This document shows positions 19,799-28,100 of a stretch of 64,000 nt of DNA, in pieces. Source of the DNA: Dictyostelium discoideum (lineage: Eukaryota). Position numbers and translations under genes: made by a program. The stretch covers positions 6,048,001-6,112,000 of the forward strand of contig CM000152.2 in assembly GCA_000004695.1 (NCBI GenBank), in the 5' to 3' direction. Each line of letters opens with the position of its first letter. The first letter of the stretch is position 1. The notes beneath the pieces are model-generated. The model was not told the origin of the DNA. It searched no databases and worked only from the letters and a program-made list of their open reading frames with translations.

Positions 19799-23194
<3,396 letters not shown>

Positions 23195-23539
23195 TATAAA
23201 TAAAAAAAAAATAAAATAATTAATTCAATTCATTTAAAATAATGAATAAAATTACATTAATTTAAAACAAATTTCCAATAAAAATTTAATCTTGTTTTGT
23301 TGTTTAATTGGATAAAATGGATAAAAAAAAAAACCATATAAAAAAAACAGCCTTTATTTGAGCCCTGGTATTTCTGATTTAAATCCCATTATATAAAATG
23401 AGAACATGTAAGACTCATATTATTTTATTAATTTATTTAATTATATTTATTTTATTATATTTATTTAATTAATTTAATTTTATTTTATAACTTTAATTTA
23501 ATATATTTTATTTGAGATAATGAAATTCAAATCCAAAAA

Positions 23540-23625
23540 AATCTTGGATAATGCAATTGTTAGTTACTTCTCCTTGAGATTCTTGTTCTCATTTTATTAT
23601 ATAGTTTTAAATTACACGGCCTTTA
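23540..23625 (-). mobile_element. TRE5 C-module-like remnant (solo 3'-end fragment).
   Basis: tcttggataatgcaattgttagttacttctccttgagattcttgttctcattttatt closely matches the C-module of the full-length element at 24690-24760 (ttggataacgcaattattatttgcttctccttgagatgctagatctcattttatt). Confidence 0.4.
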
Positions 23626-24151
23626 TAAGTGTAACAGAAGTGGTATAGTTTAAAATGATTTGTATTATATTATTTAAAGAATTTCTTATGTTTAATTTAT
23701 TTTATTAATTAATTTAAATGAATTTTATATTTAGAATTTATATTTATTTATTTAATATTATTTATTTTATATTATTTGTATCTATTATATTAAGTGAGTT
23801 CTAACTACTGAAAATAATAATATTTAATTTTCATTTTATACTATCTAAAATGTGTTTGACAGATAATATTAAAAGATTTTAATATAATATGATATTATTG
23901 AATGTATATAGAAAACTAATTAGGAATTAAATGACACAATTTTAGAAATGAATAATGAAAAAAGAAGTTTTATTATTGTAACGAAGAAACACTGCTTTCG
24001 TTAAATAAGGGGTAAGTGGGTTTTTTTATATTTTTTTTAATTCAATATAATCTTTTTTTTTTTTTAATAACATCAATCAATTTTATTTTATTTTATTTTT
24101 TTTAATTCAATATAATCTTTATTATCAATTTTTGAATAAAAAAATATAAAA

Positions 24152-24224
24152 GCTCGATTAGCTCAGTCGGCAGAGCGTGGTGCTAATAACGCCACGGTCG
24201 CAGGTTCGATCCCTGCATCGAGCA
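24152..24224 (+). tRNA. tRNA-Ile (anticodon AAU).
   Basis: Cloverleaf: acceptor GCTCGAT/ATCGAGC, D arm GCTC..GAGC, anticodon stem TGGTG/CGCCA with loop CTAATAA, T arm GCAGG-TTCGATC-CCTGC, discriminator A. Confidence 0.9.
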
Positions 24225-24254
24225 TAATTTTATTAGAGAATATAAATGGTCAAG

Positions 24255-24265
24255 GGTTCGAACCC
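24255..24265 (+). promoter_or_regulatory. External B box (ex-B box) downstream of tRNA-Ile.
   Basis: GGTTCGAACCC, 31 bp after the tRNA 3' end, matches the pol III B-box consensus GGTTCGANNCC. Dictyostelium tRNA genes typically carry such a downstream ex-B. Confidence 0.5.
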
Positions 24266-24424
24266 TTAGTTTATAATTCCACTATTTTAGTCATAATATA
24301 TAAAGCACAATGAATATTATATGAATATTCTTTTTATTACAATTATGAATATTATGATTATAAAAAACTTATTTAACAATGATATTCATTACAATTGTAG
24401 ATAAAAAACAATCAAAAAACCGAC

Positions 24425-24545
24425 ATGGATCAAGCATTTTTGGAGGTGCACTAAAACATTAAAAACATCACAGACTTTGGTTCGAGTTTTGGTCTATGAC
24501 AACAATTAATGTTGACCAAAATGGCTCACCTCCAAAAATTCAAGC
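24425..24545. repeat. About 120-bp palindromic element with a B-box-like core.
   Basis: Left arm caagcatttttggaggtgcac and right arm ggctcacctccaaaaattcaagc are near-perfect reverse complements. The centre contains ttggttcgagttttggtc. Confidence 0.3.
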
Positions 24546-24642
24546 AATAGGATAGAAATTCTAACCAAAAAATTAAAAAAAAACCAAATCAAATCAAATT
24601 AAAGAGTTTCTTGTGGAATCTAAGGTTTACATTTTTTTAATA

Positions 24643-24655
24643 TTTTGAAAAAAAG
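24643..24655. repeat. Target-site duplication (left copy) of the TRE5-A insertion: TTTTGAAAAAAAG.
   Basis: Identical 13-mer at 30733-30745, immediately outside the other element end. Confidence 0.7.
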
Positions 24656-25102
24656 TTTTTTTTTTTTTTTTTTTTTTTTTTGAATTGGATAACGCAATTA
24701 TTATTTGCTTCTCCTTGAGATGCTAGATCTCATTTTATTTTATTTTTTTTTTTTTTTTACAGGGTCTCTAAAAGAGGGGTTAGTTTACTTTTTTTTTTTT
24801 TTTTTTTTTGTTTCGAATTTTGAATTGTATTATTACTTTTGATTAAAACATCTTTTTTGTCCAAACTTTTTTCTAAATCTTTTTTTATTTTATCGTCTGG
24901 TTCGTGATTGATGTTTATGACGTATTTGAATTGTTTTTTTTTTAATTGAGTTTTATCCACAATTTCGCTTATTTTTTGTAGGCATTTGTGTTGCTTAATA
25001 TTTGTGGTGTTGTTTGTGATTTTCATTTTATTTTCTTTCTATTTTTTATATTTTTCTTTAAAAAGTTAAAAATCTGGAAATTTTCTGATTATCTTGGGTT
25101 CA

Positions 25103-25163
<61 letters not shown>

Positions 25164-28100
25164 TTATTTATAGAAAGTACTGAGTGAATTATTGTATTTT
25201 TTGAGATGTTTAGGAAGTTCTATTGCGTGAAGAGGTGAGTTCCATTGTCTGCTAAATTGTAATAGCTTTAGCGAGATTAGTGAGTCTAATTTATTTTGTT
25301 CTTCTGGCCGTTGCTTTGATTTGATTCTTAATGTTTTGTTTATAACCGCTTGTGTCCTGTCCCATGCAGCTCTTTGTGTTTTAATTAGTTCACGTATGAC
25401 TTGTTGTCTGTGAATTATTATTTCTTTTTCATCGTGAATGAGTTTATTTCTTTTGTGCCAGATTTTATCGAATATAATAGCTATTAAATTGGCTACTAGT
25501 GCAATTTGTAGATGGTTTAAAATCTTCACATTCCAGGTGTGAGTGGTGTGTCCACACTTAGTTAGGGTGTAGTTGAAGATTTCTTGTGTGTTTTTGATGT
25601 GGGCTTTGCAGTTGAAGAATATATGTTCTGAGGTCTCATCTTCCCCACACTGTTGGCATGGCATGTTGTATATTTTTGGTAGTGCTTTCAGTGTGTATCT
25701 CCATAATAGATCTCTACCTTTCATGTTTATTATTTTTTTGATTTCTTTAAATGGAAGGTGTTTGCTATTAATTTTGGTCATTATTTCTTTTTGGCCAGGA
25801 GTTGGTATGAATTTGTTGTGTTCAGGAGATTGAGTTGTCATCATATCTTCGTATATTTTTTTTAATTTTGGGAGGTGTTCGTAGTGTGTTTGTTTATTTT
25901 GTGGAGTTTTTAATTGGGTCCATGCTTGCTTGCATTGCCAGTGTAGTTGTAGTTGATTTTGTTTTGTTGTTGTTTTGTTGTTGTTGTTGTTTTTGAGTTC
26001 CTCTTCCCACAGTTTTATATATGAACTAGGAGTGTTACTTACTCTTTGGTGGAGGTATCTTTCGAATAACCATGCTTTCTGTGCTAGTTCTCTTGTCTTC
26101 AGGTTCCATAAGTTTAGGCCACCATTGATATAGTTGTTTTGTCTTCTTTGTAGTGAAAGAGAGTTTTTAGATTTTGTGTTGAAAACGAATTTTACGATGT
26201 TATTTTCAATACTATTGTGTTGTGGTGTGGTGTTGATGTAAGTGTGGAACGTTAACTGAGATAGTGCATATGTTTTTGCCATTATGAGTCTGCCCATATA
26301 GGTTGATGAAGTTGAGTTCCATGTTACTAGTTTAGCTCTGATGTTGTCTGAGATTGTATTGATTTTGGATTTGATACCCTTATTGTTGAAGTCAAAGCCG
26401 AGGTACCTTTCGTTTGATTTTATGACGGTGTATAGCGTTCTGGTGTTCCATTTGAAAGTGATACACGAGCATTTGGTTTGGTTTATTTTTGCGCTGGTTG
26501 CTTGGCAAAACTTCTTGATCCATTCATTCATGAGGAAATGGTCCATAAAGTTGTATGCTATTGTTGCTGTATCATCGGCGAACTGTAGTATTTTAATGGT
26601 TTCTTTGGTTACACCATTGATGCAGCGGTCATTTATTATAGTAGTTGCCATGCATTCACCCACTAATGCGAAGATAGTGGGAGAGATAGGATCACCTTGT
26701 TTGGTTCCTCTTTTTGATGTAAAGCTTTTAGATAATGAGTTATTGATGTACACTGATGTTTCTGATTCATTGAGTAAGTTCATTATTGTGAGGACCATTT
26801 TGAGTGGTAGTTTTAGATGTGCAAGAGTACGTAGAATGGCGTTATGTGAGAATAAATCGAATGCTTTTTCAAAATCATAAAATGTTATGATTGGTTCCAT
26901 ATCCTCTTTTGTGTTAATCTCTCGTTTTATTATTTCTATTGTTGAGTTTAAGGTGATGATGTTATCGTGCAGTAGTCTTCTTGGTACGAATCCAGTTTGG
27001 AATGGTGAGATTATTTTGTTTAAGAACTTCAGGATCCTATTGTTGATTATTTTCGAATAGATTTTGTAATCGACATTTAGAAGTGTTATTGGTCTATAAT
27101 TATCCAGGTTGTTTGGGTCTCCTTTGTTTTTATATATAGTAATCAATATCCCTTGTTTGAAGTCCTTTGGGATTGTTGTGTTCCAGAAGTGATTGTATAG
27201 TTTTGATATTATTGGTAGAATTTCATTAATGTGGTTTTTGTAAAATGTTGGAAGGAGTCCATCTTTACCAGGTGCTTTTCCTTCTTGTATTTTTTCAATG
27301 CCTAGTCTGATTTCATATCCTTCTATTGGTTGATTAATTTCGTCCAATATCTTTTGATCAATCCTTTTATTGAATGTTTTTAGGAGTTCGTGGTGAGTGT
27401 CTTCGTTGCATTCTCTCTTCTGGTACAGGTTCTCGTAATATCTTCTTGCTACTTCGAGGATATCCTCGTGTTTTGTTACCAAACAATTGTTGCTTGGATC
27501 TAGAATTTGAGGGATTTCATTTGTCTTTCTTTGGACTTTTAACCTTCTGGTTAAGTATTTTGATGGTGTTTCTTTGTTGTTGATGTGGGTGTTGGTTTGG
27601 TTTGCTTGTTTTATTCTTACTTGTTCCTTTAGAATATTGTTGATCTCTTCTTTAAGGAAGATTGCTCTTGAATCTTTGGCTGTTTCGAGTTTTTCTGCGA
27701 GTTCTTTTAGTTTGTTTTTGGTTTTATTGCTTTCTCTAATTTCTATATTAATTGACAGTTTCTTTATTTCATCTTTTAGTTTCAACCATTGTTCGCAAAT
27801 GTTTAATTTGTACCATTTGCTGGTGTTCTCTTCGAATTTTTTATTGTAGTATTTAATTGTTTTATTAATTTTGAGGCTGGTTGAATTCATTTTGAGAGTT
27901 TCTAGGTTTTGTCTCCATAGTCTTTCTCCTTTCTTTTGTTGCTCGTATTCTGGTATTTTTAATTCAATGATTACCATGTTGTGATCAGATTTTAATTTGA
28001 TTTCCTTAGTAGTAACTATTGGGTTTAGATGGAGTATCTTCTTTGAGACAAAGACCCTATCGATGGTTGATTTGTTTCTTGGAAATGTGATTCCATTCTT

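Follow-up and report, generated by a model that had tools for sequence, protein, structure and literature searches.

An imperfect palindrome with a B-box motif downstream of a Dictyostelium discoideum tRNA-Ile gene is probably an old TRE3-like retroposon copy

What is a stable palindrome with a B-box-like sequence of polymerase III (pol III) promoters at its centre doing between a tRNA gene and a retrotransposon? We asked this question of a 64-kb stretch of Dictyostelium discoideum DNA (GCA_000004695.1, contig CM000152.2, positions 6,048,001 to 6,112,000 of the forward strand), hereafter the window, whose numbering is used throughout unless another locus is named. A palindromic element of about 120 bp had been predicted at 24425-24545, with a MITE- or SINE-like element, a TRE3 3'-end remnant, and a structured noncoding RNA as candidate identities. 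The coordinates and the quoted strings were correct, and the location given for the element, between tRNA-Ile and the 3' end of a TRE5-A element on the minus strand, was confirmed. The features that frame the locus are as follows.

24152..24224, plus strand: tRNA-Ile(AAU) gene, the presumed insertion target (ARAGORN; Rfam tRNA, 64.1 bits)
24255..24265, plus strand: external B box (ex-B box) of tRNA-Ile, GGTTCGAACCC, perfect, 31 bp past tRNA-Ile and within a 16-bp palindrome
24643..24655, plus strand: left TSD of TRE5-A, TTTTGAAAAAAAG, at the end of the pre-existing spacer
24656-24681, minus strand: oligo(A) of the TRE5-A-like element
24682-25095, minus strand: B- and C-module-like 3' region of the TRE5-A-like element
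25164-28385, minus strand: ORF2 of the TRE5-A-like element
28598-29932, minus strand: ORF1 of the TRE5-A-like element
30780-30854, plus strand: tRNA-Val(AAC) gene (ARAGORN)

The ex-B box is used here in its published sense (PMC5911963). A full-length TRE5-A-like element occupies 24656-30732 on the minus strand between the two tRNA genes, with its 5' end ∼35-47 bp upstream of tRNA-Val and in the orientation opposite to it, a placement that matches the published behavior of TRE5 elements (PMC5911963). The 13-mer of its TSD has just two occurrences in the window, one at 24643 and the other at 30733. When the TRE5-A element is removed at this duplication, the spacer from tRNA-Ile to tRNA-Val comes to ∼460 bp, and the palindrome region is part of that pre-TRE5-A spacer. 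Another chromosome-level assembly of D. discoideum (GCA_054883475.1) is identical to the window over 24100-24700. The TRE5-A-like copies in the two assemblies show 14 substitutions in 25092-30244 (11 of them in 25118-30001) as well as differences in homopolymer length, and long T/A runs at 24784-24810 and 25096-25162 divide the ORF2, B-module-like, and C-module-like parts of the element.

Several other sequences around the two tRNA genes were recorded in their own right. Upstream of tRNA-Ile, a fragment like the TRE5-A C module lies on the minus strand at 23546-23600, ∼550 bp from the gene, with CTCCTTGAGAT in common with 24711, and two copies of an 18-bp direct repeat, TTAATTCAATATAATCTT (24037 and 24102), enclose T-rich sequence ∼50 bp upstream of the gene (24037-24120); both are probable TRE5-type remnants. 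Downstream of tRNA-Val, a 5'-truncated TRE3-type fragment on the plus strand (30881-32052; ORF2 C terminus at 31210-31926, A16 tail) begins just 26 bp past the gene and is flanked by an 11-bp duplication, AGTAACAAATT, at 30870 and 32053. This insertion displaced the ex-B box of tRNA-Val, GGTTCGACTCT (32074), 1.2 kb away from its gene. At 30908-30959, a micro-insertion made of TCACAGGT and A13 sits between 16-bp direct repeats, ATACATATAATAAATA (30908 and 30944), and looks like an extremely 5'-truncated retroposition event. Finally, the segment 32150-32215, which ends in TTTCCTTTAATGGATAAACATTGATTAATCAAAATT(A)n, resembles the third of the TRE3-type 3' ends described below (L003 9637, L036 15196, and L038 10906) and is read on this resemblance as one more old insertion, past the displaced ex-B box.

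Is the palindrome itself real? The arms had been described as complementary at 19 of 21 positions, which is overstated; what stands is a palindrome whose arms pair at 13 of 13 positions, bordered by short repeats.

24430..24435, plus strand: left TCAAGC direct repeat, flush with the 13-bp arm
24436..24448, plus strand: left outer inverted-repeat arm, ATTTTTGGAGGTG, complementary at 13 of 13 positions to 24527-24539
24527..24539, plus strand: right outer inverted-repeat arm, CACCTCCAAAAAT, inside a family-conserved GGCT...TCCA..AAAA block
24540..24545, plus strand: right TCAAGC direct repeat

The outer TCAAGC hexamers, which number five in the 64-kb window, form a direct and not an inverted repeat: they pair at 2 of 6 positions, and the innermost 3 nt pair at 1 of 3. 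Inside the outer stem lie two nested helices, ACATTAA (24456-62) with TTAATGT (24506-12) and CATCACAGAC (24466-75) with GTCTATGACA (24492-501). The latter contains 7 Watson-Crick pairs and three C.A mismatches that become G.U on the minus strand. Together, the outer stem and the two nested helices make an imperfect palindrome of ∼104 bp.

Folding the 121 nt as RNA, a check proposed with the original prediction, placed the sequence in the top 0.1-0.8% of the window's 121-nt folds. The plus strand folds at -28.2 kcal/mol (z -2.2) and the minus strand at -35.0 kcal/mol (z -3.9), the latter value being reached by 0 of 200 shuffles; among 8518 sliding 121-nt folds of the window, equally stable ones make up 0.8% on the plus strand and 0.09% on the minus strand. 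The remaining outlying folds came from the tRNA-Ile gene and from triplet repeats in coding sequence, (GAT)n/(CAT)n. Strand-asymmetric stable folds (-37 to -40 kcal/mol, minus strand only) also appear at 196-340 and 63300-63450; they stem from coding (GAT)n, (CAT)n, and (AAT)n repeats and are not structured RNAs. As to base composition, the window has a GC content of 22%, and the distinct composition claimed for 24300-24650 is present over ∼24400-24625 (GC 0.30-0.34 versus 0.08-0.23 nearby) and absent from 24300-24400. The palindrome is a genuine, unusually stable, imperfect one that carries a real B-box motif, and it had been misdescribed in detail.

Does the sequence occur elsewhere? Self-BLAST of 24226-24654 gave AT-rich noise only, with no second copy in the window, and no second D. 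discoideum copy was found in ∼83 kb of extra DNA (four loci with four more tRNA genes), leaving one copy in ∼147 kb in total. We examined the TRE3-containing loci L006, L035, L036, L037, and L038 for copies and for comparison of 3' untranslated regions (UTRs), and no copy of the outer arms was present elsewhere in the 231 kb of sampled dictyostelid DNA. A metagenome scan for TTGGTTCGAGTYTTGGTC returned 28 unrelated, mostly GC-rich matches, and a full-text literature search for the arm and core strings returned unrelated primers only. Searches of Rfam 15 (E ≤ 10) with window positions 23000-26000, L004 8400-9300, and L005 9000-9800 gave nothing except tRNA. We also considered a tRNA pseudogene and rejected it: ARAGORN and Rfam were negative, and no acceptor or anticodon arm could be drawn by hand around the T-loop-like motif.

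A homologous copy was found in a different species and past a different tRNA gene. In Dictyostelium dimigraforme, a 236-bp unit (L005 9434-9669) lies 171 bp downstream of tRNA-Val on the same strand, 128 bp past a degenerate ex-B box. It ends in an A24 tail and is flanked by a 12-bp TSD, AAGGAATAGAAG, which is repeated in the locus at those two places alone. The two sequences share three collinear blocks: a 29-nt block identical at 26 of 29 positions (CCTCCGTGACCTTGGTTCGAGTCTTGGTC in the window versus CATCACAGACTTTGGTTCGAGTTTTGGTC), the block AAA(A/T)GGCTC, and an 18-nt terminal hairpin block (GGTTAGAAATTCTAACCA versus GGATAGAAATTCTAACCA), with the A-rich tail immediately after it. None of 500 dinucleotide shuffles reached the composition-weighted score of this similarity (z 6.3), and the chained alignment gave the same z. 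A profile of both copies searched with nhmmer gave no extra significant match in the sampled loci. Because a poly(A) tail with a TSD is the signature of target-primed reverse transcription, the family would be one of retroposons and the window copy (∼24422-24583) one of its insertions. On homology to the D. dimigraforme unit, the window copy can be divided as follows.

24414..24421, plus strand: candidate left TSD, AAAAAACC, a perfect 8-mer repeated at 24578-24585; weak and A-rich
24422..24577, plus strand: element body, 5' end approximate, from homology to L005 9434-9669; positive AT skew, the plus strand being the A-rich sense strand
24466..24501, plus strand: hairpin A, stem 24466-75/24492-501 with the B-box-like sequence in the loop; kept in the D. 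dimigraforme copy (GTGACC...GGTCAT)
24479..24489, plus strand: B-box-like sequence, GGTTCGAGTTT, 9/11 to GGTTCGANTCC; the D. dimigraforme counterpart, GGTTCGAGTCT, matches at 10/11
24500..24514, plus strand: hairpin B, CAACA-ATTAA-TGTTG; the D. dimigraforme equivalent by position is ACCATG-AATTGA-CATGGT
24550..24566, plus strand: terminal hairpin C, GGATAGAAATTCTAACC, just before the A tail; the D. dimigraforme counterpart, GGTTAGAAATTCTAACC, is perfect
24567..24583, plus strand: degenerate A-rich tail, AAAAAATTAAAAAAAAA; the D. dimigraforme counterpart is CCAATATATT followed by A24
24578..24585, plus strand: candidate right TSD, AAAAAACC, which has its final 6 A in common with the A-rich tail, making tail and TSD indistinguishable

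The tail of the window copy is an interrupted A9. The copy begins ∼198 bp past tRNA-Ile and ∼157 bp past its ex-B box, lies on the tRNA strand with its A tail distal to the tRNA, and has an A-rich plus strand, as has the sense strand of the other TREs in the window. Six-frame translation and ORF listing gave no ORF of more than 28 amino acids; a WFExWS frame is common to both species' copies, and stops precede it in both.

Is the B-box motif a chance match or a feature of the family? The claim of a B-box-like centre was borne out: GGTTCGA occurs five times in the 64 kb, in two tRNA B boxes, in two ex-B boxes, and at the palindrome. Throughout the 231 kb sampled, it is found in tRNA B boxes, in ex-B boxes 24-40 bp past tRNAs, in both copies of the element, and at one AT-rich site. 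That sole exception (L006 4916) is an isolated GGTTCGA in intergenic DNA, ∼5 kb from the nearest tRNA. The segment TTGGTTCGAGT is identical at 11 of 11 positions between the window and D. dimigraforme copies; the B box of the window copy has lost the last two consensus C residues (C61/C62). Since few other sites than those of tRNA and ex-B boxes carry GGTTCGA, the motif is better read as a conserved family feature than as a chance match. An ex-B box, taken as GGTTCGANNCC within a few tens of base pairs downstream of a tRNA and at the orthologous place in relatives, shares with this motif a GGTTCGA core that is set in a small palindrome or hairpin and follows a tRNA gene. However, the motif lies 255 bp past tRNA-Ile versus 24-40 bp for the sampled ex-B boxes, lacks the last two consensus C residues in the window copy, is missing from the orthologous spacers, and belongs to a mobile unit that sits past a different tRNA in another species.

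In both copies the motif lies in a hairpin loop, formed by GTGACC...GGTCAT in D. dimigraforme and CACAGAC...GTCTATG in the window. A second small hairpin occupies the equivalent position with a different stem sequence (ACCATG/CATGGT versus CAACA/TGTTG), and a terminal hairpin precedes the tail in both. From this pattern, the 3' region seems to have kept its RNA structure across copies; the comparison comprises two to three sequences, MAFFT leaves the register of both hairpins uncertain by 1 nt, and we claim no covariation. A separate B-box-like sequence, GGGGGTTCAAAC, is carried by a 112-nt unit ending in A26 in Dictyostelium cf. discoideum (L003 8651-8788). The unit is nested in a TRE3-type fragment, among its poly(A) tracts, and AAAAATATGTTGGAA flanks the entire composite.

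We then asked about the orthologous spacers. The syntenic loci of D. cf. discoideum (L003), Dictyostelium citrinum (L004), and D. dimigraforme (L005) were reached via orthologues of the downstream NAGidase gene; homologues of the low-complexity 1131-amino-acid neighbor protein were found in Dictyostelium purpureum only. All three sister species keep the order gene, tRNA-Ile, tRNA-Val, NAGidase, with inter-tRNA spacers of 1441 bp (D. cf. discoideum), 693 bp (D. citrinum), and 74 bp (D. dimigraforme). The element core was not found at the orthologous spacer in any of the three. In D. cf. discoideum, the alignment is limited to about the first 50 bp past tRNA-Ile, including the ex-B box. As the 74-bp spacer of D. 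dimigraforme shows, D. discoideum gained most of its spacer as added material. One segment of the D. citrinum spacer (L004 8645-8733, ∼140 bp past tRNA-Ile) resembles the D. dimigraforme copy without its B-box piece; 5 of 500 shuffles reach the score, and we regard it as a tentative relative. The same spacer also contains a 38-bp, 97% identical inverted repeat between tRNA-Ile and tRNA-Val (L004 8840-8877/9077-9114), whose left arm lies in sequence loosely like the window element (GAGCCAAAATTGG...) and over which a probably spurious 146-amino-acid "gene" is called on the minus strand.

Which retroposon is this? TRE3 elements insert in tRNA orientation, downstream of a B box or ex-B box (PMC5911963; PMC5006619), 40-150 bp downstream of the tRNA and ∼100 bp past the B box or ex-B box, and D. 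discoideum has four TRE3 families, TRE3-A to -D (PMC5911963). Both copies of the element lie downstream of a tRNA and its ex-B box in tRNA orientation. They are short, like 5'-truncated copies, and have a poly(A) tail and TSD, clearly so in D. dimigraforme and as an interrupted A9 and an 8-bp A-rich repeat in the window. The terminus CAATAT(AT)T-(A)n of the D. dimigraforme copy, which ends in CAATATATT(A)n, is also that of TRE3: of the eight occurrences of CAATAT(AT)T(A)n in 231 kb, six are the 3' ends of TRE3-type fragments. Three kinds of TRE3-type 3' end were sampled: an abundant one past tRNA-Val (31927-32038), a second in L006 (10835-10937) and L037, and a third in L035, L036, L038, and L003. 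Apart from the terminal CAATAT(AT)T, the body of the element is unlike these three 3' UTRs, which lack its B-box hairpin. It also lies at or slightly beyond the published TRE3 distance of 40-150 bp, beginning 171-198 bp past the tRNA and 128-157 bp past the ex-B box, and it has no ORF remnant. With four TRE3 families and three sampled 3' ends, the element could be the 3' end of an unsampled family or a nonautonomous partner. On present sequence comparisons, we consider it probable that ∼24422-24583 is an old, inactive, short poly(A) retroposon; its most likely source is a TRE3-type element, of which it would be the 3' untranslated end with the 5' part truncated. Of the identities originally proposed, the TRE3 3'-end remnant or SINE-like pol III-related element is the one essentially supported, by the TSD and A24 of the D. 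dimigraforme copy, the tRNA-downstream orientation, and the 3' terminus, with a body that differs from the three sampled 3' ends.

Could the element instead be a nonautonomous, SINE-like retroposon with its own pol III B box, mobilized by the TRE3 machinery, whose putative functional hairpin serves as a promoter element or as an ex-B-like TFIIIC landing pad? tRNA-derived or B-box-bearing SINEs that borrow a LINE 3' end form stringent LINE/SINE pairs, and we know of no SINE described in Dictyostelium. The element resembles a SINE in its small size (236 bp including the TSD in D. dimigraforme), its TSD and poly(A), and a 3' hairpin and tail like the TRE3 terminus expected of a LINE partner. The B box, fully identical between the species' copies over 11 nt, 10/11 to consensus in D. 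dimigraforme, and with a core otherwise almost confined to tRNA and ex-B sites, points the same way. The window and D. citrinum sequences may also have a common 5' end, (A/G)CATG...GGAT...CATTTT, with an A-box-like TGATGTAGTGG there in D. citrinum. However, the window copy has no A box and its B box is without C61/C62, the D. citrinum relative has no B box and is statistically weak, and neither a convincing A box nor a tRNA-like fold is present in the element, ARAGORN and Rfam both being negative. In addition, T runs in the sense strand of the window copy (T5 at 24438-24442 and T4 at 24487-24490) and the CATTTT conserved in all three sequences (window, D. dimigraforme, and D. citrinum) lie upstream of or next to the B box and would terminate pol III, and multiple full-length copies were not seen in the 231 kb sampled. 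We therefore find a SINE-like identity doubtful.

A functional role for the structure is improbable, whether as a structured RNA gene or miRNA-like hairpin precursor transcribed from the minus strand or, at the DNA level, as an extra TFIIIC site for tRNA-Ile. The minus-strand fold (-35 kcal/mol, z -3.9, top 0.1% of the window), with its three C.A mismatches turned into G.U, speaks for such a role, as does the presence of a B-box motif. Nevertheless, the structured noncoding RNA that had been suggested finds no Rfam match at E ≤ 10, the orthologous spacers of three sister species are without the element, and the long stem is missing from the homologous copy. Moreover, asymmetric loops divide the helices, the longest of which without interruption, at 13 bp, would make a short Dicer substrate, and a search of the accessible miRNA literature gave no sequence match. 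The extra TFIIIC site, at 255 bp, is far from the 24-40 bp of the sampled ex-B boxes.

The perfect 13-bp inverted termini and the identical TCAAGC flush on both sides, a hexamer seen five times in 64 kb, would suit a MITE or foldback DNA transposon of 104 bp (24436-24539) with a 6-bp TSD. The original prediction included this reading, and we now disfavor it as very improbable. Both the inside of the putative unit (24466-24494 and the GGCTC block) and its outside (the hairpin at 24550-67 and the A tail) are found in the D. dimigraforme copy with order and orientation unchanged; this copy has no inverted termini, its boundaries are a TSD and poly(A) of the retroposon type, and no other copies of these arms were found in 231 kb. 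The TRE3-retroposon model leaves the flush TCAAGC direct repeat unaccounted for. Least probable of all is that the palindrome arose by chance in unique intergenic DNA and belongs to no element. The sequence indeed has no second copy in the window or in the ∼83 kb of further D. discoideum DNA, but none of 500 shuffles matched its similarity to the D. dimigraforme copy, which runs collinear through three blocks, its GC-rich 13-bp arms lie in a 22% GC genome, and its fold is an outlier.

How, then, would a TRE3-like retroposon have come to look like a palindrome? In the scenario that we favor, the RNA of the element would have been inserted by target-primed reverse transcription ∼198 bp past tRNA-Ile and ∼157 bp past its ex-B box. 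Hairpin A with the B box in its loop, hairpin B, and terminal hairpin C would be structures of the 3' region of that RNA, of the kind that non-LTR reverse transcriptases recognize. The 13-bp outer stem would be a secondary feature. The D. dimigraforme copy keeps hairpins A, B, and C without the long palindrome (fold z about -1 on either strand), and the outer stem accordingly appears, from the comparison of copies, to be a feature of the window copy only. The right arm lies inside the GGCT...TCCA..AAAA block common to all three sequences, so the left arm is apparently the derived side; GGAGGTG in the window stands against same-sense CTCCAC in D. dimigraforme and CTTCC in D. citrinum. The stem may be the product of a template-switch mutation, or templated inversion, in which the right arm was copied as its complement. 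Such a switch would explain a perfect, GC-rich 13-bp match within otherwise diverged sequence.

What does this element mean for the tRNA-gene neighborhood of Dictyostelium? As a dead retroposon copy its importance is minor: it makes a further layer at a tRNA-Ile/tRNA-Val locus in which TRE5-A and TRE3 have already landed. The element is ordinary in kind, with two modest curiosities, the B-box hairpin on a mobile unit and the copy-specific perfect stem with its flanking direct repeats. The stem is a candidate example of a template-switch (templated) mutation making a hairpin. Of wider interest is that a mobile unit targeting pol III genes itself carries a near-consensus B box. We think it unlikely, on the sequences compared here, that these copies represent a new family of short nonautonomous retroposons in the D. 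discoideum species group, riding on the TRE3 machinery, with a functional B-box hairpin by which each insertion would plant a new TFIIIC site, a mobile "ex-B box," past a tRNA. If this were true, the planted TFIIIC sites could give further landing pads for tRNA-targeted elements. Should TFIIIC bind this B box, sites for pol III factors and integration targets would spread along with the element, and the spread of such sites would bear on the evolution of tRNA-gene targeting in the compact Dictyostelium genome.
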